A stretch of DNA of 64,000 nucleotides from Escherichia coli (lineage in GTDB: Bacteria; Pseudomonadota; Gammaproteobacteria; Enterobacterales; Enterobacteriaceae): NCBI RefSeq assembly GCF_024502345.1, contig NZ_JALDNN010000001.1; one strand, written 5' to 3'. Made by a program: the position numbers and the translations under genes. Numbering within the stretch: the stretch's first letter is position 1; each line of letters opens with the position of its first letter. A model generated the notes under the pieces. It saw only the letters and a list, made by a program, of their open reading frames with translations. It was not told where the DNA came from and ran no database searches. This document shows, piece after piece, positions 1-29,159 of this stretch.

Positions 1-166
1 CACTTTGCGATGAAGGTGAAGCGTTGTATCACCGCATGACCGAGCAAGGAGTGCAATGTACCTGCCAACGCTACCCTGGCGTTATCCACGGATTTTTTCA
101 GTTAGGTGGTATCAGCGAGGCCGCGCGATCGGCACTACGGGATGTTGCCTGGAGAGCGGGAAGGTA
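1..166 (+). CDS. 3' end of an alpha/beta-hydrolase (esterase/lipase, HSL/Aes-like) gene; partial, start lies outside the window
   Basis: Open frame from position 3 to TAA at 164-166 gives ...LCDEGEALYHRMTEQGVQCTCQRYPGVIHGFFQLGGISEAARSALRDVAWRAGR*; a C-terminal HGF motif is typical of the catalytic His region of fold-3 esterases. Not in the ORF track because it is truncated. Confidence 0.45.
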
Positions 167-182
167 ACTTCGGACCTGGGCC

Positions 183-215
183 CTGAAAAGGTTTTCAGAT
201 TGAAAACCTTTTCAG
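183..215. repeat. Perfect 14-bp inverted repeat with 5-nt loop between convergent genes; possible bidirectional terminator
   Basis: ctgaaaaggttttc (183-196) / agatt / gaaaaccttttcag (202-215); lies between the esterase-like stop (166) and the yiiD stop (231). The stem is AT-rich, so terminator strength is uncertain. Confidence 0.4.
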
Positions 216-230
216 TCAAGTAAAACGCCC

Positions 231-1220
231 CTACTCTTCTTCGTTCCCGCCCTCTTCATACGGGCCAAATGGCTTCGCGGGCAGAACGATATACGTGCCT
301 TCAAACACTGCACCCGGCGTCTCGTCGCCAAAGATTTCAACTTGCATCTGCACCCGTGCTTTTCGTCCGCGCGCCAGACGGTCGAGATCGCCGCTTAAGG
401 CACCAAGGTCGGCTACCGCATGGGGTTTACCGCTAATCGGTTTGCTGTAGCGGATATGCGCATCCGCCAGAATAATCGTTCCGCCGAGGTGGCGTTCACG
501 CAGCATCAGCCAGATAAGCCCCCAACCGGTGAGCGTCGCCAGCGAGAATAAACTCCCGGCAAACAGCGTATGGTGCGGATTCTGATTGCCGGTTTCCGGC
601 ATGGTGGTGATAAATTTTTGCCCGGTATATTGTTGAATACGCACGCCCATTTTTTCACTAAGCGGGATATGTTCGTACCACGCCTGTTGCAGCTGCGCGC
701 ACCAGTCGCCGCGATGCAAAATATCATCCAGAGTGGCGACGGGCTTAATCATCAAAAAATGGCGAATCGGCGTGGTGGTTGGCGTGGTGATTTCTCCCTG
801 ATTAACAAACCCCAGCTTGGCGAAAAACTCCACCGCGTCTTCACGGGCGCTACAGGTCACGCGCTTAACGCCTTCCTGACGCGCCACCGACTCTAGGGTC
901 ATCGCCATCAGCGTTCCTAACCCTTTGTCCTGCACGTCCGGGTGAACGGCCATAAAGCGAATGGACGCTTCATTGTCGGCATTAATATACAGTCGGCCTA
1001 CCGCCACCAGATTACCCTGCTCGTCGACGACCATCTGGTGATGCGCCATCGCATCCCACGCGTCGCGTTCCGAACCTTTTGGTTGATGCAGGGGCTTACG
1101 CAACATTTCCCAGCGAAACTGATAGTAACGCTCTAATTCTTCTTCTGTTTGTGGAACCCGAAGGTGATACATAGCGATACTCTCTCTTGTTTCCCGTGAC
1201 AACCCTGGAAGCTGGCTCAT
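231..1220 (-). CDS. yiiD: GNAT acetyltransferase / thioesterase-like fusion protein YiiD (FabY)
   Basis: 329-aa ORF whose sequence I recognise as YiiD; start overlaps the dtd stop (ATGA), implying translational coupling. Confidence 0.9.
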
Positions 1221-1654
1221 ACCTGCAACCAGAATGTCACGGGGCCATCATTGACCAGCGATACCTGCATATCCGCAGCGAAGCGTCCTGTTTGCGTGTT
1301 CATCTCTTGCTGACGGCAGCGTTCGACGAAATAGTCATATAACGCCTCTGCGCGATCCGGTGATGCACCTTTGGAGAAACTTGGGCGCATCCCCCGTTCG
1401 GTATCTGCGGCGAGGGTAAACTGGGAAACCACCAGCACACTGCCGCCCGCCTGTTGCACGTTGAGATTCATCTTGCCTTCGGCATCGCTAAAGATGCGGT
1501 AGCCGAGCACACGCTCGCACAGACGGTTTGCTTTCTGTTCGTCGTCATCCTTTTCGACACCCAATAACACCAAAAGTCCCGCGCCAATTTCGCCCGTCAC
1601 TTCTCCCTCCACGGTGACGCTGGCACGGGTTACGCGTTGAATTAATGCAATCAT
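1217..1654 (-). CDS. dtd: D-aminoacyl-tRNA deacylase
   Basis: 145-aa [22 protein letters not shown]...; length and sequence match Dtd; 4-bp overlap with the upstream rbn stop. Confidence 0.95.
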
Positions 1655-2523
1655 GGTTCGTCGTCTTCTTCTTGTTCAGCTGCTTGTTTTAGTTTGCGGT
1701 ATTCCCCGAGAGTGACAGTAATTTCCGCGCCAAGCAAGACGATACACCATGTCCAGTAGACCCAAACAAAGAGAATGGGGATCACCGCCAGCACACCGTA
1801 AATGAGCTGATATGAGGGGAACATGGTGATATAAAGCGCGAAACCTTTCTTTCCTGCTTCGAACAGGAGTGCAGCAACAAACGCGCCGACAATCGCGTCG
1901 CGGTTAGGTACGCGGATGGTTGGAACAATGCTGTACAGCAACCAGAAGGAGATCCACGACAACAGCAGCGGAAAAATACGCAGCACGTTGTCGATGACAG
2001 TATTGAGATCGCTCGCCCAGCGCAGGGAGAGCAAATAGGAACTGATCGCCAGACTGGCCCCTGCCAGCAGCGGCCCCAGCGTTAAAATCATCCAGTACAC
2101 GGCGAACGAGTAAATTTTTGGTCGAGCTCGTTTACTGCGCCAGATGGTATTCAACGCGCTATCGATGGAGTACATCAACAATAACGCGGTGACGATCAGC
2201 CCGCACGCCCCAACGGCGGTCATCTTGTTGGAATTGGCAACAAATTGTTCGATATACCGCTGAATAACATCGCCAGTAGCAGGCAGAAAGTTGGCAAAAA
2301 TAAAGTGACGCAACTGAATGCTGACGTCGGAAAACATGGGAAAAGCGGCGAAAAGCGCAAAAACAACGGCAACCAGCGGCACTAATGAGAGCAACGACAC
2401 ATAGGCAAGGTTACCTGCCAGGGTTGTCATGTTGTCCTCATCAATGCGTTGCCAGAGTAGTTTCAGCCAGGCCCATAGCGGACGGGTACGGTGCCTGGCT
2501 TTGTCCTGAATGGTTTTTAGCAT
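1651..2523 (-). CDS. yihY: BrkB/YihY family inner-membrane protein
   Basis: 290-aa hydrophobic ORF with multiple predicted TM segments; position between yihX and dtd as in K-12. Confidence 0.9.
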
Positions 2524-3116
2524 AACACCTTCGCGAAATAGTCCGGGATGGTGGTTTTATCTTTCACCAGAATACTGGTAATGCCCAGCTGATTAGCTCC
2601 TTCTATATTATCGGCGTTATCGTCGAAAAAGGCCGTATCGCTGGGTGAAAAACCTTCCGCCTGCAAAACATGCTGGTAAATTCGAGCTTCAGGTTTGCGC
2701 ATCCCCAGATCTTGCGACAGATAGATATGGTCAGCAGCATCACGAATTTCCGGGTATTCTTCCGGCCAGAAGGTGGTATGCAGGCGGTTGGTATTGGAAA
2801 GCACCACCACGCGATGCTCCTGCTCACGCAGTTTATGCATGATGGCGATCACTTCCGGGCGCAGCGCAACAAACACCGCCTGCCAGCCGTGAGAGAACTG
2901 CTCGTAGCTTAGCGGTAGAGCCATCTCATGACACAGCGCCTCTGCGAACGCTTCGTCGCTAATTTCCCCGCGCTCATGCTGATGAAACGCCTCCCCCATA
3001 TGAAAACTCTTCTTAAGCGATGCCAGCGGAATACGCGTTAAATCGCTCCAGGCTCCCAGCACACGGTTAAAGTCGATATCGACAATCACATTACCTAAAT
3101 CAAAGATATAGAGCAT
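2517..3116 (-). CDS. yihX: HAD-superfamily phosphatase (alpha-D-glucose-1-phosphate phosphatase YihX)
   Basis: ORF-track frame 2517..3137; I place the start at the ATG at 3114-3116 ([18 protein letters not shown] motif I DxG) preceded by GGAGG; the track's upstream start is a GTG. Gives 199 aa. Confidence 0.9.
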
Positions 3117-3226
3117 TTTTGCCTCCTTTCGCGCCACAAGAAATTAACTGTAGCGGGAAAGGATGGGTTTGGCTATGTGGCAAGGTATGAAGCCAGGTCA
3201 ACGGTCACAAAAATCTACGCGTCTTC

Positions 3227-4000
3227 CTAGGGAAGAATGATTTCAATTTGGCTGTCTTGTAAGCGTGATTTTAGCGCAGCGGGCGGCAGCTCGTCGGTGA
3301 AGAGCGCGGTGACCTGTGCCACGTTACCAATTTCAACCGCCGCCGAAGCATGATACTTAGTGTGATCGGCGACCAGCAGGATATTTCTCGCGTGCGCCAT
3401 CATCGTTTTCACCACGTTAGCTTCGTTTACATCAAACTCCATCAACGCGCCATCGCTCTCGATTGCGCCTACGCTTGTTACCAGATAATCAGCACGAAAA
3501 TCGGCCACAAAGGACGCCGCTGAAGGGCCAATGATCCCGCTATTATGAGAGCGCAACGTACCGCCGGGCACCATCACTTCAAAGCGCGGGTTGTGGTAAA
3601 GAATATGCGCCACACGCAGGCTGTTGGTGATTATCCGCAAATGATTATGGTTAAGTAACGCCCGGGCGACATGCTCAACGGTCGTACCAATGGTGATAAA
3701 TATTGTTGAACCATCAGGAATATAGTCTGCCACCGCTTCGGCAATCGCTTTTTTTTCCTCGGTTTGCGAAACCTCACGCTGCTCGAACGCCGTATTAACG
3801 ACGCTGGAAGCCCGACCCGCGCCACCGTGATGGCGCGTAATCAGGCCTTGCTCGCTTAATTTACGAATATCCCGGCGCACCGTCTGCGTGGAGACATCCA
3901 GCAGATTTGCCAGCTCATCAATATTCATATACCCACGCTCGGCGATCAGCATGAGGAGTTGGTCGTGCCGCGGGTTACCGGTTAGTTCGGTAAGGCTCAT
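3227..4000 (-). CDS. yihW: DeoR-family transcriptional regulator of the sulfoquinovose cluster (CsqR/YihW)
   Basis: N-terminal HTH (MNIDELANLLDVSTQTVRRDIRKL) plus DeoR C-terminal sugar-binding domain; start chosen at ATG 3998-4000 (MSLTEL...) with GAGGAA 6 nt upstream; the track's longer start is a GTG. Confidence 0.85.
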   Translation of the reverse strand: MSLTELTGNPRHDQLLMLIAERGYMNIDELANLLDVSTQTVRRDIRKLSEQGLITRHHGGAGRASSVVNTAFEQREVSQTEEKKAIAEAVADYIPDGSTIFITIGTTVEHVARALLNHNHLRIITNSLRVAHILYHNPRFEVMVPGGTLRSHNSGIIGPSAASFVADFRADYLVTSVGAIESDGALMEFDVNEANVVKTMMAHARNILLVADHTKYHASAAVEIGNVAQVTALFTDELPPAALKSRLQDSQIEIILP

Positions 4001-4033
4001 GAAAATTCCTCGAAAAACCATCACCCTGGCATT

Positions 4034-4930
4034 TTATACAAAAAGTGACAAAAAAGATCGGGTTTGATCACAGTCAGGGATCCCGGCTCGTCCACCGGGA
4101 CGCGTGCATTTCAACGCCGCTACACCGCTGGCGAAGCGGACTGACTCCGCTAAATCCCCACCTGTTGCCAGCGCCACCGCCAATGCGCCGTGAAAAACAT
4201 CACCCGCACCTGTGGTATCTACCACATCAACTTTGAAGGCCGGTTGATGTTGACGCCCGCCATTTTCCAGCCAGTCACAGCCTGCGCTGCCCTGGGTCAC
4301 ATAGACATGACCATTTGTGAGCGTTTGTGCCTGTTTTAGCGCACTGGCCATCTCTTTCACACCCGTTAAGCGCGCCAGACCCGGTTCTGAAAAGGCCGCA
4401 TGATCGCTTAATGCCACCAGCTCGCTGATATCCTGCGGCGTAATATCACCGTCCAGAACGGTCATCACGCCCGCCTGCCGGGCCAGAGTGAAGGCTTTTT
4501 TAGCGCCGTCGTGCCAGCGTACATCTGCCAGCACAACATCCCACTGAGAGAAATCAATTTCCTCCAACCACTCTGCGTCAGGCAGCAGGTCCGGGCTGGG
4601 GTAGTTAATGATTATCCGCTCGCCTGTGGCATCCACCATGATGGCGGATTGCGATGATTTCGCCTGGTTATACCGTTTGGTGTAACGGGTGTTAACGCCC
4701 CAGGATTCCAGCTCTGCCAGCAGGCTGTTGCCCGTGTCGTCATCACCTACGCGACCCATAAAATCAACCTGCGCCCCCAGCCTTGCCGCCGCAACCGCTG
4801 CCGTCGCCGCTGGCCCGCCACCAACTTCCGTATAATTTCTCGCCACGTATTTACCGCTCTCCGTCGGTAACCCTTCCACGTAATAGATGCGATCCATCAC
4901 GGTTATACCTACACAAGCAACACGAATCAT
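4034..4930 (-). CDS. yihV: PfkB-family sugar kinase (6-deoxy-6-sulfofructose kinase YihV)
   Basis: PfkB ribokinase-like ORF with GAGD motif (DTTGAGDVFHGA); start set at the third Met (MIRVACVG...), 298 aa, with AAGGA upstream. Confidence 0.9.
   Translation of the reverse strand: MIRVACVGITVMDRIYYVEGLPTESGKYVARNYTEVGGGPAATAAVAAARLGAQVDFMGRVGDDDTGNSLLAELESWGVNTRYTKRYNQAKSSQSAIMVDATGERIIINYPSPDLLPDAEWLEEIDFSQWDVVLADVRWHDGAKKAFTLARQAGVMTVLDGDITPQDISELVALSDHAAFSEPGLARLTGVKEMASALKQAQTLTNGHVYVTQGSAGCDWLENGGRQHQPAFKVDVVDTTGAGDVFHGALAVALATGGDLAESVRFASGVAALKCTRPGGRAGIPDCDQTRSFLSLFV
4038..4050. promoter_or_regulatory. Copy 1 of exact 13-bp motif ACAAAAAGTGACA, upstream of yihW inside the 3' end of yihV; candidate regulator-binding element
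   Basis: Exact repeat of the 13-mer at 5063-5075; a chance exact 13-mer match in 64 kb is unlikely (about 1e-3). Confidence 0.4.
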
Positions 4931-4981
4931 GGTCATTCCTTAAACATTTTGGGATGCGTTCATTTTAATTTCACCAATTGT

Positions 4982-5075
4982 TTAAAAAGTGACGGCTGTC
5001 AATTTTTTGACTATAAATTACAAATACGATCAAAAACAGACAATCAAAGCGTGTCATAAATGACAAAAAGTGACA
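4982..5075. promoter_or_regulatory. yihV/yihU divergent control region with repeated AAAAAGTGAC motifs and the palindrome TGTCATAAATGACA
   Basis: AAAAAGTGAC at 4984-4993 and 5065-5074; palindrome TGTCATAAATGACA at 5052-5065; 13-mer ACAAAAAGTGACA at 5063-5075; TTGACT at 5007-5012. Lies between the divergent yihV and yihU starts. Confidence 0.45.
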
Positions 5076-5097
5076 TCGCTGTATTCAGGAGAAGGTT

Positions 5098-5994
5098 ATG
5101 GCAGCAATCGCGTTTATCGGTTTAGGACAAATGGGTTCGCCAATGGCGAGCAATTTATTGCAGCAAGGGCACCAACTTCGCGTCTTTGATGTGAATGCCG
5201 AGGCTGTGCGGCATCTGGTAGACAAAGGCGCGACTCCCGCCGCCAACCCGGCGCAGGCCGCTAAAGATGCCGAATTTATCATTACCATGTTGCCGAATGG
5301 CGATCTGGTGCGCAGCGTGTTGTTCGGTGAGAACGGCGTTTGCGAAAGCTTATCTACCGATGCGCTGGTCATTGATATGTCGACCATCCATCCGCTGCAA
5401 ACCGATAAATTGATTGCCGATATGCAAGCCAAAGGCTTCAGCATGATGGATGTTCCGGTAGGCCGTACTTCTGCAAATGCCATTACCGGTACTCTGTTAC
5501 TGCTGGCTGGCGGCACCGCTGAACAAGTTGAACGTGCCACGCCGATCCTGATGGCGATGGGCAGTGAGTTGATCAACGCTGGCGGTCCGGGCATGGGGAT
5601 CCGCGTTAAGCTCATCAACAACTATATGAGCATCGCACTCAATGCGCTTTCGGCAGAAGCTGCCGTTTTGTGCGAAGCCCTGAATCTTCCCTTCGATGTT
5701 GCCGTCAAAGTGATGAGCGGTACCGCCGCCGGTAAAGGCCACTTCACCACTTCCTGGCCAAACAAAGTCCTCAGCGGAGATCTTTCTCCCGCCTTCATGA
5801 TCGATCTTGCCCATAAGGATCTTGGCATCGCCCTTGATGTCGCCAACCAGCTGCATGTGCCAATGCCGCTGGGGGCCGCCTCACGGGAGGTTTATAGCCA
5901 GGCGCGCGCAGCGGGTCGCGGTCGCCAGGACTGGTCCGCCATTCTGGAACAGGTCCGTGTCAGTGCCGGGATGACTGCCAAAGTAAAAATGTAA
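5098..5994 (+). CDS. yihU: 3-sulfolactaldehyde reductase (3-hydroxyisobutyrate dehydrogenase family)
   Basis: 298-aa ORF with N-terminal Rossmann motif [10 protein letters not shown]; AGGAGAAGG SD upstream; matches YihU. Confidence 0.95.
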
Positions 5995-6017
5995 CGACTG
6001 GATAAAGGAATAAATGA

Positions 6018-6896
6018 ATGAATAAGTACACCATCAACGACATTACGCGCGCATCGGGCGGTTTTGCCATGCTGGCGGTCGATCAGCGCGAAGCCATGCG
6101 CATGATGTTTGCCGCGGCTGGGGCACCCGCTCCGGTAGCCGATAGCGTTTTAACTGATTTCAAAGTTAACGCGGCGAAGACCCTCTCGCCTTATGCCTCG
6201 GCGATTCTGGTAGATCAACAATTCTGTTACCGCCAGGTGGTTGAGCAAAACGCGATTGCCAAAAGTTGCGCCATGATTGTCGCCGCCGATGAGTTCATTC
6301 CTGGCAACGGTATTCCGGTAGATAGCGTGGTCATTGACCGCAAAATCAATCCGCTACAGATCAAACAAGACGGTGGCAAAGCCTTAAAACTGCTGGTGCT
6401 GTGGCGTAGTGATGAAGATGCGCAGCAACGCCTGGATATGGTGAAAGAGTTTAACGAACTGTGCCACTCACACGGCCTGGTAAGCATTATTGAGCCAGTC
6501 GTCCGCCCACCACGTCGTGGCGATAAATTCGATCGCGAACAAGCGATCATCGATGCCGCCAAAGAGCTGGGCGACAGTGGCGCTGACCTCTACAAAGTTG
6601 AAATGCCGCTTTACGGTAAAGGTCCGCAACAAGAGCTTCTCAGTGCTTCACAACGTCTGAATAACCATATCAATATGCCGTGGGTGATCCTCTCTTCCGG
6701 TGTCGACGAAAAACTGTTCCCGCGTGCCGTACGCGTGGCAATGACAGCGGGTGCATCGGGCTTCCTGGCTGGTCGTGCCGTCTGGGCATCGGTCGTCGGT
6801 TTACCAGACAACGAGTTGATGCTGCGTGACGTTTGTGCACCGAAATTACAACAACTGGGCGATATCGTCGACGAAATGATGGCTAAACGCCGTTAA
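6018..6896 (+). CDS. yihT: 6-deoxy-6-sulfofructose-1-phosphate aldolase (class I aldolase, LacD/DeoC-like)
   Basis: 292-aa ORF 24 bp downstream of yihU; matches YihT. Confidence 0.95.
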
Positions 6897-6911
6897 GATG
6901 GGGATACAAAA

Positions 6912-8153
6912 ATGAAATGGTTTAACACTTTAAGTCACAACCGTTGGCTGGAACAGGAAACCGATCGCATCTTTGATTTTGGTAAAAATTCCGTAGTACC
7001 GACCGGATTTGGCTGGTTAGGCAATAAAGGGCAAATCAAAGAAGAGATGGGCACCCATCTGTGGATCACAGCTCGTATGTTGCACGTTTATTCCGTTGCT
7101 GCGGCGATGGGTCGACCTGGCGCTTACTCGTTGGTTGATCACGGTATTAAAGCCATGAACGGCGCACTGCGCGATAAAAAATATGGCGGCTGGTATGCCT
7201 GTGTGAATGACGAGGGCGTGGTGGATGCCTCCAAACAGGGCTATCAACATTTCTTTGCTCTGCTGGGTGCTGCCAGCGCCGTCACTACCGGTCATCCGGA
7301 AGCGCGCAAGCTGCTCGATTACACCATTGAAATTATCGAGAAATACTTCTGGAGCGAAGAAGAGCAGATGTGCCTGGAGTCCTGGGACGAAGCCTTCAGC
7401 AAAACCGAAGAGTACCGCGGCGGCAATGCCAATATGCACGCAGTGGAAGCTTTCTTAATTGTTTATGACGTAACGCATGACAAAAAATGGCTGGATCGCG
7501 CGATTCGCGTGGCTTCCGTGATTATCCACGACGTCGCAAGAAATAATCATTATCGCGTTAACGAACACTTCGATACCCAGTGGAATCCGCTGCCGGATTA
7601 CAACAAAGATAACCCGGCGCACCGCTTCCGCGCGTTCGGAGGTACACCAGGCCACTGGATCGAATGGGGCCGTTTAATGCTGCACATCCACGCGGCCCTG
7701 GAAGCCCGTTGCGAACAACCGCCAGCATGGTTGCTAGAAGATGCCAAAGGTCTGTTTAACGCCACCGTGCGTGATGCCTGGGCACCCGATGGTGCGGACG
7801 GGATTGTTTATACCGTTGACTGGGAAGGAAAACCGGTGGTCCGCGAACGTGTGCGTTGGCCTATCGTCGAAGCGATAGGTACGGCCTACGCGCTCTACAC
7901 CGTCACCGGCGATCGCCAGTATGAAACCTGGTATCAGACATGGTGGGACTACTGCATTAAGTACCTGATGGACTATGAAAATGGTTCCTGGTGGCAGGAG
8001 CTGGATGCGGACAATAAAGTCACCACGAAAGTCTGGGACGGCAAACAGGATATTTATCACCTGCTGCATTGCCTGGTGATCCCGCGTATCCCGTTAGCGC
8101 CAGGCCTGGCTCCGGCAGTTGCGGCGGGTCTGCTGGATATTAACGCGAAATAA
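6912..8153 (+). CDS. yihS: Sulfoquinovose isomerase (N-acylglucosamine 2-epimerase fold)
   Basis: 413-aa ORF; matches YihS. Confidence 0.95.
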
Positions 8154-8333
8154 CTGACTAAAAAAAAACGACATATCAGGCTGCACGCCGGGTATGTCGT
8201 TATTCAATAAAGGTACCTCGTATGCAAATCACCAACATGCATTGCAGTGGACAGACCGTTTCACTTGCCGCGGGGGATTATCACGCGACCATTGTGACCG
8301 TCGGTGCAGGTCTGGCTGAATTAACCTTTCAGG

Positions 8334-9554
8334 TGTAGATTCAATTGGTCAACGCAACAGTTATGTGAAAACATGGGGTTGCGGAGGTTTTTTGAATGAG
8401 ACGAACATTTACAGCAGAGGAAAAAGCCTCTGTTTTTGAACTATGGAAGAACGGAACAGGCTTCAGTGAAATAGCGAATATCCTGGGTTCAAAACCCGGA
8501 ACGATCTTCACTATGTTAAGGGATACTGGCGGCATAAAACCCCATGAGCGTAAGCGGGCTGTAGCTCACCTGACACTGTCTGAGCGCGAGGAGATACGAG
8601 CTGGTTTGTCAGCCAAAATGAGCATTCGTGCGATAGCTACTGCGCTGAATCGCAGTCCTTCGACGATCTCACGTGAAGTTCAGCGTAATCGGGGCAGACG
8701 CTATTACAAAGCTGTTGATGCTAATAACCGAGCCAACAGAATGGCGAAAAGGCCAAAACCGTGCTTACTGGATCAAAATTTACCATTGCGAAAGCTTGTT
8801 CTGGAAAAGCTGGAGATGAAATGGTCTCCAGAGCAAATATCAGGATGGTTAAGGCGAACAAAACCACGTCAAAAAACGCTGCGAATATCACCTGAGACAA
8901 TTTATAAAACGCTGTACTTTCGTAGCCGTGAAGCGCTACACCACCTGAATATACAGCATCTGCGACGGTCGCATAGCCTTCGCCATGGCAGGCGTCATAC
9001 CCGCAAAGGCGAAAGAGGTACGATTAACATAGTGAACGGAACACCAATTCACGAACGTTCCCGAAATATCGATAACAGACGCTCTCTGGGGCATTGGGAG
9101 GGCGATTTAGTCTCAGGTACAAAAAACTCTCATATAGCCACACTTGTAGACCGAAAATCACGTTATACGATCATCCTTAGACTCAGGGGCAAAGATTCTG
9201 TCTCAGTAAATCAGGCTCTTACCGACAAATTCCTGAGTTTACCGTCAGAACTCAGAAAATCACTGACATGGGACAGAGGAATGGAACTGGCCAGACATCT
9301 AGAATTTACTGTCAGCACCGGCGTTAAAGTTTACTTCTGCGATCCTCAGAGTCCTTGGCAGCGGGGAACAAATGAGAACACAAATGGGCTAATTCGGCAG
9401 TACTTTCCTAAAAAGACATGTCTTGCCCAATATACTCAACATGAACTAGATCTGGTTGCTGCTCAGCTAAACAACAGACCGAGAAAGACACTGAAGTTCA
9501 AAACACCGAAAGAGATAATTGAAAGGGGTGTTGCATTGACAGATTGAATCTACA
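8334..9554 (+). mobile_element. Insertion sequence IS30, complete 1221-bp copy, flanked by 2-bp target-site duplication GG
   Basis: Left end TGTAGATTCAATTGGTCAACGCAACAGTTATGTG..., right end ...TTGACAGATTGAATCTACA (terminal inverted repeats); length 1221 bp; GG at 8332-8333 and 9555-9556; encodes a 383-aa transposase. Confidence 0.95.
8396..9547 (+). CDS. insI: IS30 transposase (DDE family)
   Basis: 383-aa ORF MRRTFTAEEKASVFELWKNGTGF... with N-terminal HTH and C-terminal DDE domain; recognised as the IS30 transposase. Confidence 0.95.
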   Translation: MRRTFTAEEKASVFELWKNGTGFSEIANILGSKPGTIFTMLRDTGGIKPHERKRAVAHLTLSEREEIRAGLSAKMSIRAIATALNRSPSTISREVQRNRGRRYYKAVDANNRANRMAKRPKPCLLDQNLPLRKLVLEKLEMKWSPEQISGWLRRTKPRQKTLRISPETIYKTLYFRSREALHHLNIQHLRRSHSLRHGRRHTRKGERGTINIVNGTPIHERSRNIDNRRSLGHWEGDLVSGTKNSHIATLVDRKSRYTIILRLRGKDSVSVNQALTDKFLSLPSELRKSLTWDRGMELARHLEFTVSTGVKVYFCDPQSPWQRGTNENTNGLIRQYFPKKTCLAQYTQHELDLVAAQLNNRPRKTLKFKTPKEIIERGVALTD

Positions 9555-10407
9555 GGGCTGTCATTTAGTTATTCCACATAAACCCGAAGAGATGCCGCTG
9601 GCACATCTGGGCAAAGTCCTTATTCCGTGGCCGAACCGGATCGCCAACGGCTGTTATCGCTATCAGGGGCAGGAATATCAGTTACCCATTAATGAACATG
9701 GTTCAAAAGCCGCTATTCATGGGCTGCTCGCCTGGCGTGACTGGCAAATCAGCGAATTAACCGCCACCAGCGTTACCCTGACAGCTTTTCTGCCACCCAG
9801 TTACGGCTATCCGTTTATGCTGGCTTCGCAGGTTGTTTATTCGCTCAATGCACGCACGGGTCTTTCCGTTGAGATCGCAAGTCAGAATATTGGTACTGTG
9901 ACCGCACCCTATGGTGTGGGTATTCATCCTTATTTAACCTGCAACTTAACATCTGTTGATGAATATCTGTTCCAGCTTCCGGCAAACCAGGTTTATGCCG
10001 TCGATGAGCACGCTAATCCGACAACGCTTCACCACGTTGATGAGCTGGATTTAAATTTCACGCAGGCGAAAAAAATAGCCGCGACAAAAATCGACCACAC
10101 CTTTAAAACCGCTAATGATCTGTGGGAAATAACCATTACCCATCCACAACAGGCGCTTTCGGTAAGCCTTTGTTCCGATCAACCCTGGGTGCAGATTTAT
10201 AGCGGCGAAAAATTACAGCGTCAGGGACTGGCAGTTGAACCTATGAGTTGCCCACCTAACGCCTTTAATTCAGGTCTCGACTTATTATTACTGGAACCAG
10301 GGAAAACGCACCGCCTGTTTTTTAATATTTACGGGCAGCACAATTAATTTTATTAAGAAAAGAACGAGATCATTGTTTAGGGTTGTATTTACACAACAGG
10401 AAATATC

Positions 10408-11283
10408 ATGGACTTTTTTACGTTATTTTCACCGGATGGGGTCATGCTGGAAACAAACGTGGTATGTATCGTTATCGCGTTAATGTTTCTTTATACCTTT
10501 GTGGGGATATGCGCGGGATTTGGCGGTGGTTTAACCACCATGCCGCTCGTCACGTTAATGCTCCCCGTAAAAATGGCAACTCCGCTCTCGGTGATTGTCG
10601 GCACCGCGACCGCCTTGTACGCCACCTGGCTGTCACGTAAAGAAACGGATTGGCGATCGGCAATGGTACTGATTATTTTCTCGTTTCTGGGAATACCCGT
10701 CGGTTTATATGCGCTGTCATATTTACCCGACCATTTTATGAAAGTGGGCTTAGGCGGATTCCTTATCCTGTACTCCTTTTACAGTATGTTTATTCCACGC
10801 CTGCCGATTTATGACCGCAACTGGATCGCCGCACCTATCGGCGCTGTGGCAGGAGCGTTAGGGGCAGCGTTTTCAACCAACGGACCGCCGATGGTTATCT
10901 ACGGTATGCTGCGTAACTTAGGCCCGGCGGCATTTCGTGGCACTCTGAACGCTTTCTTCACCGCAAACAACATCGCGGTGATCGGCGGGCTGGCGACCAG
11001 CGGAATTTTGACTGTTTCTATCTTTAAACTGGTGCTGTTTTGTATTCCCACCATGATCCTCGGTTCACTGGTTGGACAATATGTGCATAAACGCATTTCA
11101 GTCAAAGTGTTCCGTGTGATGGTCTTTTTGTTGCTGATTGCCTCCGGTTCTATGTTGATAAAAGGCGCGCTGGGAATTCCCGCTGCTGCCGCGCTTCTGC
11201 CTCCTTTTACCTTGTTAGTTATACTGCAACTGGCATTTGGTAAAAAAGTGGCGGCAATCCGCCGGGCTGAAGAAAGTAAATAA
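10408..11283 (+). CDS. TauE/SafE (TSUP, DUF81) family anion permease; putative sulfite or organosulfonate exporter
   Basis: 291-aa polytopic membrane protein with the family hallmark glycine motif (GICAGFGGGLTTMPL) and a second repeat (GAVAGALGAAFSTNGPP); AGGAAA SD 6 nt before the ATG; host-like GC and codon usage. Sits between yihR and yihQ. Confidence 0.8.
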   Translation: MDFFTLFSPDGVMLETNVVCIVIALMFLYTFVGICAGFGGGLTTMPLVTLMLPVKMATPLSVIVGTATALYATWLSRKETDWRSAMVLIIFSFLGIPVGLYALSYLPDHFMKVGLGGFLILYSFYSMFIPRLPIYDRNWIAAPIGAVAGALGAAFSTNGPPMVIYGMLRNLGPAAFRGTLNAFFTANNIAVIGGLATSGILTVSIFKLVLFCIPTMILGSLVGQYVHKRISVKVFRVMVFLLLIASGSMLIKGALGIPAAAALLPPFTLLVILQLAFGKKVAAIRRAEESK

Positions 11284-11391
11284 TCACTTATGCGGGTTTT
11301 AATTTATACCAGCACCACATTCTTTAATTAATGAAACCTGTAACAACAGGATGGCATGAAATATTAGCTTTATACTCTATGGAGATTATTT

Positions 11392-13424
11392 ATGGATACG
11401 CCACGCCCACAATTACCAGATTTTCAGTTTCATCAGAATAACGACAGTTTTACCCTACATTTTCAACAGCGTCTTATTTTAACCCATAGCAAAGATAATC
11501 CTTGTTTATGGATTGGTTCAGGTATTGCGGATATCGATATGTTCCGCGGCAATTTCAGCATTAAAGATAAACTACAGGAGAAAATTGCGCTTACCGACGC
11601 CATCGTCAGCCAGTCGCCGGATGGTTGGTTAATCCATTTCAGCCGTGGTTCTGACATTAGCGCCACGCTGAATATCTCTGCCGACGATCAGGGCCGTTTA
11701 TTGCTGGAACTACAAAACGACAACCTTAACCACAACCGTATCTGGCTGCGCCTTGCCGCTCAACCAGAGGACCATATCTACGGCTGCGGCGAACAGTTTT
11801 CCTACTTCGATCTGCGTGGCAAACCGTTCCCGCTATGGACCAGTGAACAAGGCGTTGGTCGCAATAAACAAACCTATGTCACCTGGCAGGCCGACTGCAA
11901 AGAAAATGCGGGCGGCGACTATTACTGGACTTTCTTCCCACAGCCTACGTTTGTCAGCACGCAGAAGTATTACTGCCATGTTGATAACAGTTGCTATATG
12001 AACTTCGACTTTAGTGCCCCGGAATACCATGAACTGGCGCTGTGGGAAGACAAAGCAACGCTGCGTTTTGAATGTGCTGACACATACATCTCCCTGCTGG
12101 AAAAATTAACCGCCCTGCTGGGACGCCAGCCAGAACTGCCCGACTGGATTTATGACGGAGTAACGCTCGGCATTCAGGGCGGGACGGAAGTGTGCCAGAA
12201 GAAACTGGACACCATGCGTAACGCGGGCGTGAAGGTCAACGGCATCTGGGCGCAGGACTGGTCCGGTATTCGTATGACCTCTTTTGGCAAACGCGTGATG
12301 TGGAACTGGAAGTGGAACAGCGAAAACTACCCGCAACTGGATTCGCGTATCAAGCAGTGGAACAAAGAGGGCGTGCAGTTCCTTGCCTATATCAACCCGT
12401 ATGTTGCCAGTGATAAAGATCTCTGCGAAGAGGCGGCAAAGCGCGGTTATCTGGCAAAAGATGTCGCCGGTGGCGACTATCTGGTGGAGTTTGGCGAGTT
12501 CTACGGCGGCGTTGTCGATCTCACCAATCCGGAAGCCTACGCCTGGTTCAAGGAAGTTATCAAAAAGAACATGATTGAACTCGGCTGCGGCGGCTGGATG
12601 GCTGACTTCGGCGAGTATCTGCCCACCGACACGTACCTGCATAACGGCATCAGCGCGGAAATTATGCATAACGCCTGGCCCGCGCTGTGGGCGAAATGTA
12701 ACTACGAAGCCTTGAAGAAACGGGCAAGCTCGGCGAGATCCTCTTCTTTATGCGCGCCGGTTCTACCGGTAGCCAGAAATACTCCACCATGATGTGGGCG
12801 GGTGACCAGAACGTGGACTGGAGTCTGGACGATGGCCTGGCGTCGGTTGTCCCGGCGGCGCTATCTCTGGCAATGACCGGACATGGCCTGCATCACAGCG
12901 ACATTGGCGGTTATACCACCCTGTTTGAGATGAAGCGCAGCAAAGAGCTGCTGCGCTGGTGCGATTTCAGCGCCTTCACGCCGATGATGCGCACCCACGA
13001 AGGTAACCGTCCTGGCGACAACTGGCAGTTTGACGGCGACGCGGAAACCATCGCCCATTTCGCCCGTATGACCACCGTCTTCACCACCCTGAAACCTTAC
13101 CTGAAAGAGGCCGTCGCGCTGAATGCGAAGTCCGGCCTGCCGGTTATGCGCCCGCTGTTCCTGCATTACGAAGACGACGCGCAGACCTATTCCCTGAAAT
13201 ATCAGTACCTGTTAGGTCGCGACATTCTGATTGCTCCGGTACACGAAGAAGGTCGCAGCGACTGGACGCTCTATCTGCCAGAGGATAACTGGGTCCACGC
13301 CTGGACCGGAGAAACCTTCCACGGTGGAGAAATAACTGTTGAAGCGCCCATCGGCAAGCCGCCGGTCTTTTATCGCGCCGACAGCGAATGGGCTGCACTG
13401 TTCGCCTCGTTAAAAAACATCTAA
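11392..13424 (+). pseudogene. yihQ: Sulfoquinovosidase (GH31) gene with a -1 frameshift
   Basis: Two overlapping ORFs (11392-12792 and 12750-13424) in different frames both match YihQ. Frame 1 reads ...CNYEAL through 12712-12714; frame 2 reads EETGKLGEILFFMRAGS from 12714. Continuity needs GCC TTG GAA GAA where the sequence has GCC TTG AAG AAA, i.e. one G missing at 12714/12715. Confidence 0.8.
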
Positions 13425-13469
13425 TCATGCCCGCCCGTGGGGAAACTCACGGGCAAATGGAGAATAACG

Positions 13470-14855
13470 ATGAGTCACATCACAACGGAAGATCCGGCAA
13501 CTTTGCGCCTGCCCTTTAAAGAGAAACTCTCTTACGGTATCGGCGATCTGGCCTCTAACATCCTGCTGGATATTGGTACGCTTTATCTTTTGAAGTTTTA
13601 TACCGACGTTCTGGGGCTACCTGGCACCTATGGCGGCATTATCTTTTTGATCTCGAAATTCTTTACCGCCTTTACCGATATGGGAACCGGCATCATGTTG
13701 GATTCCCGGCGTAAGATTGGCCCGAAAGGTAAGTTCCGCCCTTTCATTTTGTACGCGTCATTCCCGGTCACCTTATTGGCAATCGCTAACTTTATCGGCA
13801 CACCGTTCGATGTCACTGGTAAAACGGTGATGGCCACTATTCTATTTATGCTCTACGGGCTGTTTTTCAGCATGATGAACTGCTCCTACGGCGCAATGGT
13901 TCCCGCCATTACCAAAAACCCCAACGAACGCGCATCGCTGGCGGCATGGCGTCAGGGTGGTGCTACATTGGGCCTGCTGCTGTGTACGGTGGGATTCGTG
14001 CCGGTGATGAACCTTATCGAAGGTAATCCGCAACTGAGCTACGTTTTCGCCGCCACGCTATTTTCACTGTTCGGCCTGCTGTTTATGTGGATCTGCTACT
14101 CGGGCGTGAAAGAGCGTTATGTCGAAACCCAACCTGCTAATCAGGCGCAAAAGCCAGGCTTGCTGCAATCTTTCCGCGCAATTGCCGGTAACCGCCCACT
14201 GTTCATTCTGTGTATTGCCAACCTCTGCACCTTAGGGGCGTTTAACGTCAAGCTCGCCATTCAGGTCTATTACACCCAGTACGTGCTTAACGATCCCATC
14301 CTGTTGTCGTATATGGGATTTTTTAGCATGGGCTGTATTTTCATCGGCGTGTTCCTGATGCCTGGCGCAGTTAGACGTTTTGGTAAGAAGAAGGTCTATA
14401 TCGGCGGCCTGCTGATTTGGGTGCTTGGCGATCTGCTCAACTATTTCTTCGGCGGCGGCTCGGTCAGTTTTGTGGCGTTCTCCTGCCTGGCATTCTTTGG
14501 CTCGGCGTTTGTTAACAGCCTGAACTGGGCGCTGGTTTCCGACACCGTCGAGTACGGCGAGTGGCGCACCGGTGTCCGTTCTGAAGGGACGGTCTACACC
14601 GGCTTCACCTTCTTTCGCAAAGTGTCTCAGGCGCTGGCTGGTTTCTTCCCCGGCTGGATGCTGACGCAAATCGGCTATGTGCCGAACGTGGCGCAGGCTG
14701 ACCACACCATTGAAGGGTTGCGCCAGCTGATCTTCATCTACCCAAGCGCACTGGCGGTAGTCACCATTGTGGCGATGGGTTGCTTCTACAGTCTGAACGA
14801 GAAGATGTACGTCCGCATTGTTGAAGAAATAGAAGCCCGTAAACGCACGGCGTAA
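13470..14855 (+). CDS. yihP: GPH-family (glycoside-pentoside-hexuronide:cation symporter) transporter
   Basis: Start set at ATG 13470 (MSHITTEDPATLRL...) preceded by GGAG; 461 aa; paralogous to the adjacent yihO. Confidence 0.9.
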   Translation: MSHITTEDPATLRLPFKEKLSYGIGDLASNILLDIGTLYLLKFYTDVLGLPGTYGGIIFLISKFFTAFTDMGTGIMLDSRRKIGPKGKFRPFILYASFPVTLLAIANFIGTPFDVTGKTVMATILFMLYGLFFSMMNCSYGAMVPAITKNPNERASLAAWRQGGATLGLLLCTVGFVPVMNLIEGNPQLSYVFAATLFSLFGLLFMWICYSGVKERYVETQPANQAQKPGLLQSFRAIAGNRPLFILCIANLCTLGAFNVKLAIQVYYTQYVLNDPILLSYMGFFSMGCIFIGVFLMPGAVRRFGKKKVYIGGLLIWVLGDLLNYFFGGGSVSFVAFSCLAFFGSAFVNSLNWALVSDTVEYGEWRTGVRSEGTVYTGFTFFRKVSQALAGFFPGWMLTQIGYVPNVAQADHTIEGLRQLIFIYPSALAVVTIVAMGCFYSLNEKMYVRIVEEIEARKRTA

Positions 14856-14894
14856 TAATAAACGACGCCCTGCGGGGCGTTATAAGGAGTGATT

Positions 14895-16298
14895 ATGTCT
14901 GACCATAATCCACTGACATTAAAACTGAATCTGCGGGAAAAAATCGCCTATGGTATGGGCGACGTTGGTTCGAATTTAATGCTTAGCATCGGTACTCTGT
15001 ATCTCCTCAAATTTTATACCGATGAATTAGGGATGCCAGCTTACTATGGCGGGATTATCTTTCTGGTGGCGAAGTTTTTTACCGCGTTTACCGATATGCT
15101 CACCGGATTTTTACTCGACTCGCGGAAAAATATTGGGCCTAAAGGCAAATTTCGTCCCTTTATTTTATATGCAGCGGTTCCGGCGGCGTTAATTGCAACG
15201 CTCCAGTTTATCGCCACCACTTTTAGTTTGCCGGTTAAAACGACGATTGCCACGGCGCTGTTTATGATGTTTGGGCTTTCATACAGTCTGATGAACTGCT
15301 CGTATGGCGCGATGATCCCGGCAATTACCAAAAACCCGAATGAGCGCGCGCAGCTCGCTGCTTACCGCCAGGGTGGTGCAACCATAGGGCTATTGATTTG
15401 TACCGTGGCGTTTATTCCGTTGCAGTCGCTTTTTTCTGACTCAACCGTCGGTTATGCCTGTGCGGCACTTATGTTCTCCATTGGCGGCTTTATTTTTATG
15501 ATGCTGTGCTACAGAGGCGTCAAAGAGCATTATGTGGACACAGCGCCAACCGGACATAAAGCCAGTATTCTCAAATCATTTTGCGCGATATTTCGGAATC
15601 CGCCATTGCTGGTTTTATGCATTGCTAACTTGTGTACCCTGGCGGCATTTAATATCAAACTGGCGATTCAGGTCTATTACACCCAGTATGTGCTGCATGA
15701 TATTAATTTATTGTCGTGGATGGGATTCTTCAGTATGGGATGCATCCTCATCGGCGTATTACTGGTGCCATTAACTGTAAAATGTTTTGGTAAAAAACAG
15801 GTTTATTTAGCTGGCATGGTGCTATGGGCGGTTGGTGATATCCTGAATTATTTCTGGGGAAGTAACTCTTTCACTTTCGTCATGTTCTCTTGTGTCGCCT
15901 TTTTTGGCACGGCCTTTGTAAACAGCCTGAACTGGGCGCTGGTACCAGATACCGTAGATTACGGTGAATGGAAAACCGGTATTCGTGCCGAAGGTTCTGT
16001 TTATACCGGTTATACCTTCTTTCGTAAAATTTCTGCCGCACTTGCTGGCTTCTTGCCAGGCATTATGCTGACGCAAATCGGTTATGTTCCCAACATCGCG
16101 CAAAGTGATGCGACATTACAGGGTTTGCGTCAGCTCATTTTTATCTGGCCTTGTGCACTGGCAATTATTGCTGCATTGACGATGGGATTCTTTTACACAC
16201 TCAATGAAAAACGGTTTGCGTTGATTATTGAGGAAATCAACCAACGCAAAAATAAAGAAATTGAGACAGAAGAAAAAACGGCTTCCGTAACGTTATAA
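14895..16298 (+). CDS. yihO: GPH-family transporter (sulfoquinovose / SQ-glycerol importer)
   Basis: Start set at ATG 14895 (MSDHNPLTLKL...) with AAGGAG 5 nt upstream; 467 aa. Confidence 0.9.
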   Translation: MSDHNPLTLKLNLREKIAYGMGDVGSNLMLSIGTLYLLKFYTDELGMPAYYGGIIFLVAKFFTAFTDMLTGFLLDSRKNIGPKGKFRPFILYAAVPAALIATLQFIATTFSLPVKTTIATALFMMFGLSYSLMNCSYGAMIPAITKNPNERAQLAAYRQGGATIGLLICTVAFIPLQSLFSDSTVGYACAALMFSIGGFIFMMLCYRGVKEHYVDTAPTGHKASILKSFCAIFRNPPLLVLCIANLCTLAAFNIKLAIQVYYTQYVLHDINLLSWMGFFSMGCILIGVLLVPLTVKCFGKKQVYLAGMVLWAVGDILNYFWGSNSFTFVMFSCVAFFGTAFVNSLNWALVPDTVDYGEWKTGIRAEGSVYTGYTFFRKISAALAGFLPGIMLTQIGYVPNIAQSDATLQGLRQLIFIWPCALAIIAALTMGFFYTLNEKRFALIIEEINQRKNKEIETEEKTASVTL

Positions 16299-16364
16299 AT
16301 GTCAATAGCCGCTATTTCCATCCTGGTGGGTGGCGGCCTCCCTACGTTTAAAAATGGACTTATT

Positions 16365-17057
16365 ATGAAAAATATTAATGCAATAATTTTATTATCTTCT
16401 CTGACCTCTGCCTCAGTATTCGCTGGCGCATACGTCGAAAACAGGGAGGCATATAATCTCGCCTCCGATCAGGGCGAGGTTATGCTACGTGTGGGTTATA
16501 ACTTCGATATGGGCGCGGGTATTATGTTAACCAATACCTACACCTTTCAGCGAGAAGATGAACTAAAACATGGATATAACGAAATCGAAGGTTGGTATCC
16601 GTTATTTAAACCAACCGATAAATTAACCATCCAGCCCGGTGGCTTAATTAATGATAAGAGTATCGGTTCGGGTGGTGCAGTGTATCTGGACGTCAACTAT
16701 AAATTTGTACCATGGTTTAATCTGACAGTACGAAATCGCTATAACCATAATAACTATAGTTCAACAGATTTGAGCGGGGAACTGGATAATAATGACACCT
16801 ATGAAATTGGTACCTACTGGAATTTTAAAATCACCGATAAGTTCTCCTATACATTTGAGCCACATTATTTTATACGCGTAAATGACTTTAATAGCAGCAA
16901 TGGAAAAGATCATCACTGGGAAATCACTAACACCTTCCGTTATCGCATTAATGAACACTGGCTGCCTTATTTCGAATTACGCTGGTTAGATCGTAATGTC
17001 GAACCGTACCACCGCGAGCAAAACCAGATTCGTATCGGGACGAAGTATTTCTTCTGA
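16365..17057 (+). CDS. ompL: Outer-membrane porin OmpL
   Basis: Start set at ATG 16365 (MKNINAIILLSSLTSASVFA, signal peptide); 230 aa; ends in an aromatic C-terminal residue (F) typical of beta-barrel proteins. Confidence 0.85.
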   Translation: MKNINAIILLSSLTSASVFAGAYVENREAYNLASDQGEVMLRVGYNFDMGAGIMLTNTYTFQREDELKHGYNEIEGWYPLFKPTDKLTIQPGGLINDKSIGSGGAVYLDVNYKFVPWFNLTVRNRYNHNNYSSTDLSGELDNNDTYEIGTYWNFKITDKFSYTFEPHYFIRVNDFNSSNGKDHHWEITNTFRYRINEHWLPYFELRWLDRNVEPYHREQNQIRIGTKYFF

Positions 17058-28652: not shown

Positions 28653-29159
28653 TTAGTTGCCCCGCAGCAGACGCATCATGTCTTCTTGCTTCTCGTCTTC
28701 TTCCTCTTCTTCGTCATCGTCATAAGAGAGGCCGAGTTTCTGCATCAACTCATCAATACGATCCAGTTTAGCATCCACCCAGGATTGCTCTTCGGCACTC
28801 AGGGTTTCGCCTGCTTCCAGACGTTCCAGCAGCGCATCCAGACGCTCATCCGTTTCCAGTAATTCCAACTCCGCCTGCGGTGAAAGCATAGGTTTCTCAC
28901 TCTTCGGTTTGTGCTGTTTGGTGACTTTTTCAGTCACGCCCAATGGAATAGGGGTTTTACTGCCAATACGTGGATCTTTTGGTGCGTTCTGGCCTTTGCT
29001 GCCTGACGTGGTGTTACCGCCCGCTGCGCGGCTGCCCGGCGCATGACCACGACGTTTTTTCTGACGCTTGCGGTCACGTGCTTCCTGATTCAGCTCTTCG
29101 CGCGTTTTGCGACGCGCTTTTGCATGACCTTTGCTGCGTGATGGTGAAGATGGTTTCAT
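28653..29159 (-). CDS. yihI: Der GTPase-activating protein YihI
   Basis: Start set at the Met of [18 protein letters not shown]...; basic N-terminus and acidic C-terminus ([10 protein letters not shown]). Confidence 0.9.

Follow-up and report, generated by a model that had tools for sequence, protein, structure and literature searches.

The 64,000-nucleotide (64-kb) stretch of Escherichia coli DNA analysed here, which we call the window (contig NZ_JALDNN010000001.1 of assembly GCF_024502345.1), carries at positions 3215-17057 the yih cluster for sulfo-EMP (sulfo-Embden-Meyerhof-Parnas) breakdown of sulfoquinovose (SQ). The cluster in the window is a long E. coli yih cassette of the kind that includes TauE, and two genuine, recent and lineage-specific mutations have very probably disabled its glycoside-entry pair, i.e., the sulfoquinovosidase gene yihQ and the mutarotase gene yihR. 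We identified the locus from its open reading frames (ORFs), its synteny with annotated E. coli genomes and matches to NCBIfam and Pfam profiles, and we aligned it to an annotated intact yih locus (L001) as reference and to E. coli K-12 as a second reference. As in other sulfo-EMP clusters, YihS, YihV, YihT and YihU are encoded together (98.9-99.7% protein identity to K-12 and 99.7-100% to the annotated intact locus), and a DeoR-type repressor, CsqR, adjoins the cluster and lacks only its four C-terminal residues. A functional-length YihQ of glycoside hydrolase family GH31 and an intact YihR are both missing (Table 1).

The mutarotase gene is interrupted by a complete insertion sequence (IS) of 1221 bp that is 100% identical in alignment to an annotated IS30 of strain C9. 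The element is bounded by inverted repeats of 26 nt (8334-8359 and 9529-9554; 88% complementarity) and encodes an intact transposase of 383 aa (8396-9547; NF033563, 276 bits against a cutoff of 80). Without insertion the site is CAGGGCTG, as against CAGG, IS30, GGGCTG in the window, from which the target duplication is the 2-bp GG found at 8332-8333 and again at 9555-9556. In length, repeats, 2-bp duplication and transposase this copy is the same as the known E. coli IS30 of the IS30 family, and its insertion site alone is new relative to 5426 complete E. coli genomes; with its inverted repeats, transposase and target duplication it is active-looking. The insertion breaks yihR 112 nt from its start, past codon 37 of 300 and thus in codon 38. 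The 5' fragment runs into IS30 and gains one extra codon before a stop, giving a hybrid peptide of 38 aa, while the 3' fragment carries no further damage and matches profile positions 36-299 of 300. When IS30 and one GG are removed, the restored YihR is identical to the L001 protein at 301/301 positions.

The sulfoquinovosidase gene carries two lesions of its own. In alignment to L001, a CCC run is short of one C after position 12709, and the frameshifted product consists of 441 native and 25 out-of-frame residues (466 aa) with its stop at 12790-12792. Alignment to PDB 5AED/5AEE shows that Asp405 is kept and that Asp472, the residue changed to Asn in PDB 5AEE of YihQ, lies downstream of the frameshift, so that the truncation falls ahead of it. 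In the work of Speciale et al. 2016, Asp405 is reported to be the nucleophile and Asp472 the acid/base. Against the profile, the two yihQ fragments cover positions 3-446 and 455-680 of 683. The second lesion is an in-frame 3-bp deletion after 12946 that removes L520 in a part of the gene that is already untranslated. Judged from sequence, the yihR and yihQ lesions are both real and predicted to be inactivating.

Both disruptions had been proposed in an earlier sequence-only reading of the window, together with the intactness of the core isomerase, kinase, aldolase and reductase genes, which their full-length ORFs bear out; the same reading named assembly error at the two lesions as one thing that would refute it, and this refutation fails because the same alleles recur in many independent assemblies. 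Among public assemblies (of NCBI isolates, of human-gut metagenomes in ENA, and from Logan), 49 index blocks and at least 23 contigs contain the exact 466-aa YihQ fragment, and 85 index blocks the exact 38-aa yihR-IS30 hybrid peptide. Short-read contigs start or stop within the IS30 ends exactly at the junctions of the window, both lesions occur together in samples ERZ27263756, GCA_050029375.1 and ERR1600703, and two further assemblies match the window at 100% identity over 9.3 kb (L009, GCA_050022275.1) and 14.8 kb (L025, GCA_001484085.1). That the frameshift sits in a short (3-nt) homopolymer and that neither lesion is present in any complete RefSeq E. coli genome might suggest that one or both are sequencing or assembly artefacts. 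However, the identical alleles come from dozens of independent isolate and metagenome assemblies of Illumina type, the IS30 insertion is canonical in its 2-bp duplication, and 41/41 other protein genes of the window are full length with zero stops or frameshifts, i.e., no coding lesion of the 64 kb lies outside the yih cluster. An artefact is thus scarcely credible. An apparent yihO deletion in one metagenome scaffold (L012) turned out to be an N-gap of the scaffold and no lesion. In L012 and a similar scaffold (L011), both with the frameshifted yihQ, positions 1-52 are 52 nt of unrelated sequence joined at window position ca. 10104, in the middle of the yihR 3' fragment.

The yihR::IS30 junction and the yihQ 1-bp deletion are each found in 0/5426 complete RefSeq E. 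coli genomes. Since the flanks of the cluster reach at best ca. 99.2-99.4% identity over 17-64 kb in this set, the lineage is not represented among them. Among assemblies of human-gut metagenomes, near-identical contigs are common, and the lineage seems under-represented among finished genomes. It belongs to a clade marked by the substitution I58M in YihV (124 blocks) and by a CsqR of 257 aa (CsqR-257; 214 contigs). From the same clade, L032 and L033 each share 99.9% identity with the window, and L032 differs from it by only 7 single-nucleotide polymorphisms (SNPs) in 15 kb. Both are without IS30 and encode a YihR of 300 aa and a YihQ of 678 aa in which the missing C and a GCT are both present; their tauE, yihP and yihO are intact, and they still carry CsqR-257. 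Because this near-identical sister haplotype is intact and because the rebuilt YihR equals the L001 protein, which represents a functional allele, the lesions are recent: all three events, i.e., the insertion of IS30 into yihR and the deletions of 1 bp and 3 bp in yihQ, arose on a very short branch. To describe the locus as decaying, as had been done from the sequence, is therefore fair, with the correction that this decay is very young.

The intact sister YihQ allele is found on 10 contigs, and the disrupted lineage is sampled more often (85 or 49 blocks, depending on the lesion). On the contigs examined, the intact sister allele occurs only with an intact yihR and the frameshifted allele never beside one, and among the public assemblies examined we found no intermediate with only one of IS30 and the 1-bp deletion, in either direction. 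A "repaired" YihQ that carries the L520 deletion is not on record either. The identical 1-bp deletion is, in addition, present on a second haplotype (L013, GCA_014329185.1, positions 1-3177), which is without the 3-bp deletion, has a G at 13230 and an L001-like yihP, and shows an IS1 end abutting window position ca. 10360. For the deletion after 12709 and the SNP at 13230, all four combinations are thus seen (deletion and A in the window, deletion and G in L013, C present and A in L032, C present and G in L001), and the 1-bp deletion must therefore have recurred or moved by recombination.

The locus has kept changing within the lineage and around it. In a sublineage of the IS30 carriers (L010 (4447) and L014 (4474)), an extra T at window position 13998 frameshifts yihP into ORFs of 185 and 282 aa, an allele seen in two independent datasets (ERZ28663999 and ERR12304324). 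Between 13619 and 14810, yihP differs from L001 by ca. 65 SNPs in 1.2 kb, whereas in the 4 kb beside this tract one SNP and the two yihQ deletions are the sole differences; by this pattern, the yihP tract is a recombination mosaic. On a contig of 208 kb (L034, GCA_035582165.1, positions 1-6600), IS30 in yihR is followed by yicL, nlpA, yicS, nepI, yicN and adeQ-like genes, i.e., genes of the yicL region stand in place of the 3' part of yihR, which suggests either that the DNA between two IS30 copies, one of them in yih, has been inverted or that the assembly was misjoined across the repeat. In L035 and L036, from the same clade, yihR is intact and the contigs end inside tauE at window position ca. 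11127-11130, which suggests that a repeat such as an IS has inserted into tauE in that sublineage. L029 and L030 (SRR29731086, GCA_044015955.1) share the YihO allele of the window without its IS30 and without its yihQ 1-bp deletion, and they bear lesions of their own: their yihQ is split into ORFs of 384 and 285 aa, and ca. 58 bp of yihP are deleted (window 13710-13759) with an 8-bp repeat on the flanks.

Similar damage is found further afield. E. coli C9 has an internal stop in yihT and an IS30 in ompL, E. coli PSS-08-2 an IS1 at tauE, and Shigella flexneri a yihP frameshift (PMC12330013). In these strains and in L029/L030, single genes have been inactivated independently in otherwise kept clusters, as in the window, but the yihR::IS30 junction is shared by none of them and the yihQ 1-bp deletion by no other damaged cluster except L013. 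More broadly, yihQ DNA is present in 3891/5426 complete E. coli genomes and 28% are without yihQ altogether, consistent with the polymorphism between long and short yih cassettes that has been described in E. coli and Shigella (Kaznadzey et al. 2025, PMC12608037). In that work, the SQ-entry genes (yihO-S) were found to be dispensable and repeatedly lost, and the locus was called "evolutionarily labile" (PMC12608037). The window follows the same theme, the loss of dispensable SQ-entry genes, but unlike a replacement by the short yihTUVW form, this loss occurred by a point lesion and an IS insertion inside a long cassette.

Between yihR and yihQ, the window contains a gene that is absent from K-12. 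Its product is named "sulfite exporter TauE/SafE family protein" in RefSeq and matches PF01925 over residues 23-248 of 291 (E = 4.7e-35). This gene, tauE in the following, occurs in 1295 of the 5426 complete E. coli genomes as compared with 3891 for yihQ, i.e., in about a third of the long cassettes. A remnant of tauE in K-12 is ruled out, as the yihR-yihQ spacer of K-12 is a different sequence of ca. 150 bp. The TauE/SafE protein is a candidate sulfonate exporter, with 2,3-dihydroxypropane-1-sulfonate (DHPS) or sulfite among its possible substrates. One paper takes TauE as a feature that sets actinobacterial clusters apart from the E. coli prototype, and the study of E. coli cassettes mentions neither TauE nor pseudogenes nor IS elements (PMC12608037). 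The E. coli sulfoglycolysis literature, built on K-12, is silent on a TauE/SafE gene found in about one in three long cassettes.

Otherwise the cluster agrees in the order and orientation of its genes, and in its flanks (yihX at one end, yihN at the other), with ompL-yihOPQRSTUVW of K-12, the sulfo-EMP cluster described by Denger et al. 2014 (summarised in PMC6278857 and PMC8006165), to which its proteins are 94-99.7% identical. It differs by the extra TauE/SafE gene, by the IS30 in yihR, by the yihQ frameshift and by the loss of four residues from CsqR. The proteins of yihV, yihU, yihT, yihS, yihP, yihO and ompL are all full length and at least 98.5% identical to K-12. The inventory in the earlier reading gave the genes that it listed in the correct order, but it was based on K-12 and incomplete: tauE was overlooked because K-12 is without this gene, and the csqR nonsense codon and the in-frame 3-bp deletion in yihQ also escaped it.

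Table 1. Features of the yih cluster in the window (positions count from the first nucleotide of the 64-kb window).
Feature	Position	Strand	State
csqR (yihW), DeoR-family repressor	3227-4000	-	Q258*, 257 aa instead of 261; usual stop at 3215
yihV, sulfofructose kinase	4034-4930	-	intact, 298 aa; clade-marker substitution I58M
yihU, sulfolactaldehyde reductase	5098-5994	+	intact, 298 aa; NF012005, 603 bits vs cutoff 348; identical to L001 protein
yihT, sulfofructose-1-phosphate aldolase	6018-6896	+	intact, 292 aa; common allele, at least 1000 contigs
yihS, SQ isomerase	6912-8153	+	intact, 413 aa
yihR 5' fragment	8222-8333	+	codons 1-37
IS30, complete	8334-9554	+	
yihR 3' fragment	9557-10347	+	codons 38-300
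TauE/SafE (TSUP) permease gene	10408-11283	+	intact, 291 aa
yihQ pseudogene, GH31 sulfoquinovosidase	11392-13424	+	1-bp deletion after 12709, 3-bp deletion after 12946
yihP, GPH-family transporter, putative DHPS exporter	13470-14855	+	intact, 461 aa
yihO, SQ importer	14895-16298	+	intact, 467 aa
ompL porin	16365-17057	+	intact, 230 aa; NF007434, 471 bits vs cutoff 288

CsqR is identical to K-12 and L001 at 261/262 positions, and the exception is Q258* (SNP at 3229). The nonsense codon 258 (3227-3229) deletes the C-terminal QEDA, i.e., the protein now ends in ...IILP*EDA, and for this reason the csqR ORF ends at 3227 and not at 3215. The exact 257-aa CsqR is also found beside fully intact yih loci in sister haplotypes; the truncation is therefore older than the two main lesions and probably neutral. 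In the yihS-yihR spacer (8157-8200), a hairpin flanked by an A-run and a T-rich tail looks like a terminator on the minus strand, and the length of this spacer varies by strain (ca. 70 bp longer in C9, 1-bp indels in others). Along the chromosome, the segments of the window follow in the order fabY ... yih cluster ... glnALG ... polA ... rrn ... fadBA ... udp. At 29146-29148, yihI shows a net 3-bp in-frame deletion near its 5' end relative to the closest complete genome, and its protein is full length with one gap.

What these alleles would mean for the pathway depends on the division of labour between YihQ and YihR. YihQ frees alpha-SQ from SQ glycosides, YihS strongly prefers beta-SQ, and the mutarotase bridges the two (PMC8006165); spontaneous mutarotation of SQ has a half-life of 50-299 min (PMC5902678). 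With YihQ, the strain would have lost the hydrolysis of SQ-glycerol and of sulfoquinovosyl diacylglycerol (SQDG), and the earlier prediction that it cannot use these SQ glycosides appears sound in view of the yihQ truncation. With YihR it would have lost the catalysed alpha-to-beta anomerisation, and the beta fraction of free SQ would be the only part used promptly. Growth on free SQ is lost in Keio knockouts of yihO, yihS, yihV, yihT and yihU (PMC6278857), and all five genes are intact in the window. Free beta-SQ could thus still be imported by YihO and converted via YihS, YihV, YihT and YihU to dihydroxyacetone phosphate (DHAP) and DHPS, provided that yihO, 5.3 kb downstream of IS30, is still transcribed despite the insertion.

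Several points weigh against a locus that has lost its glycoside entry, and only that, by neutral decay. In K-12, yihO, yihP and ompL are strongly induced by SQ (PMC12608037), so that polarity of IS30 could silence yihO and thereby kill the pathway, and consensus scans gave no convincing promoter downstream of IS30, with counts about the same as in shuffled sequence; terminator scans of the same region also gave counts about equal to those of shuffled sequence. The cost of losing YihR is assumed, since the E. coli protein has never been characterised biochemically (PMC5902678), and since K-12 and Nissle, which has the short cassette, grew similarly poorly on SQ in one report (PMC12608037), the phenotype of the locus may be subtle. 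Moreover, the sampling excess of the disrupted lineage over its intact sister and the same yihQ 1-bp deletion on the haplotype of L013 fit a selected loss as well as they fit neutral decay. The first of these objections leads to the possibility that the whole pathway is already non-functional, with IS30 blocking the SQ-induced transcription of tauE-yihQ-yihP-yihO-ompL, no SQ import, and core genes that are intact because they have not had time to decay yet. We consider this possible but less than likely. All promoters mapped in K-12 lie upstream of the insertion (PMC5816610), the scans show no convincing sigma-70 site on its other side, the lesions are so young that intact ORFs say little about present function, and yihO has acquired two nonsynonymous changes (P82S, A93V) and no synonymous one in the IS30 lineage, though these numbers are tiny. 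On the other hand, the right inverted repeat of IS30 contains an outward TTGACA (9536-9541), and fusion promoters formed by IS30 are documented (PMC9330008). A candidate -10 element, TGTCAT at 9559-9564, lies 17 nt from this motif; it is weak but possible, remains speculative, and the pair fails the -10 criterion of our scan. Internal promoters for yihQ and yihO have also been predicted (PMC5816610), and yihO, tauE and ompL are full length in every member of the lineage that we inspected. The opposite idea, that YihQ activity is kept because two fragments (residues 1-441 plus tail, and 454-677) assemble or because ribosomes shift frame, can be set aside with near certainty: an ORF of 224 aa, overlapping the first fragment's end, does begin with the in-frame ATG at 12750 (native Met454), but the break lies within the catalytic domain between Asp405 and Asp472, native residues 442-453 are gone, the sequence offers no obvious ribosome-binding site or slippery motif, and the downstream part has gained a 3-bp deletion, which the intact sister allele lacks.

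How the two hits bear on selection is a separate matter. The sequence-only reading had taken two independent lesions in one pathway as a sign of relaxed selection on the use of plant sulfolipids. The lesions are independent as mutations, but not in terms of selection, as YihQ and YihR form a functionally coupled pair: the alpha-SQ made by YihQ reaches YihS as beta-SQ through YihR. Once one of the two genes was lost, losing the other was probably close to neutral, and as evidence for relaxed selection two hits therefore count for less than had been implied. Relaxed selection on the locus is nonetheless plausible and gains some support from the yihP frameshift in a sublineage and from the general lability of the locus. 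It is unlikely, but worth weighing, that the loss was selected and not just tolerated, i.e., that an inactive periplasm-to-cytoplasm glycoside route (yihQ/yihR, later yihP) benefits gut E. coli through less costly expression, fewer toxic intermediates or the scavenging of free SQ from other microbes. Such selection would fit the higher frequency of the disrupted lineage in samples, the three mutational events in yihR-yihQ on a branch of only 7 SNPs per 15 kb, the recurrence or transfer of the 1-bp deletion, the independent yihQ and yihP lesions in L029/L030, and the enrichment of short cassettes in host-adapted strains (PMC12608037). However, a dispensable locus exposed to mutation pressure, in a clone that expanded for unrelated reasons, would be expected to show all of this just as much; the sampling of public assemblies is non-random, and nothing points to a targeting of the core genes. 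The simplest reading of the pattern would be that a gut-associated lineage is at an early stage of losing an accessory module that it can dispense with. The more specific proposal that a widely sampled human-gut lineage has shed its SQ-glycoside entry module (yihQ and yihR, with yihP following in a sublineage) under positive selection, and with the free-SQ core that it keeps now lives as a scavenger of SQ freed by the sulfoquinovosidases of other microbes, is rather improbable; if it were true, the yihQ 1-bp deletion on two haplotypes would reflect recurrent selection or the horizontal spread of a null allele.

The sulfo-EMP cluster, IS30 and gene loss at this locus were all known before, and the alleles described here are strain-level variation; in the searchable literature we found no discussion of these specific alleles or of the TauE-bearing form of the cassette. 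Their wider meaning is that the presence of a yih cluster in a genome or gut metagenome is no guarantee of plant-sulfolipid use, and this lineage would be overcounted in surveys based on homologs of yihQ or yihS. The intact sister and the disrupted lineage, only ca. 0.05% apart, amount to a dated natural experiment on YihQ, on YihR and on the operon structure downstream of yihS.

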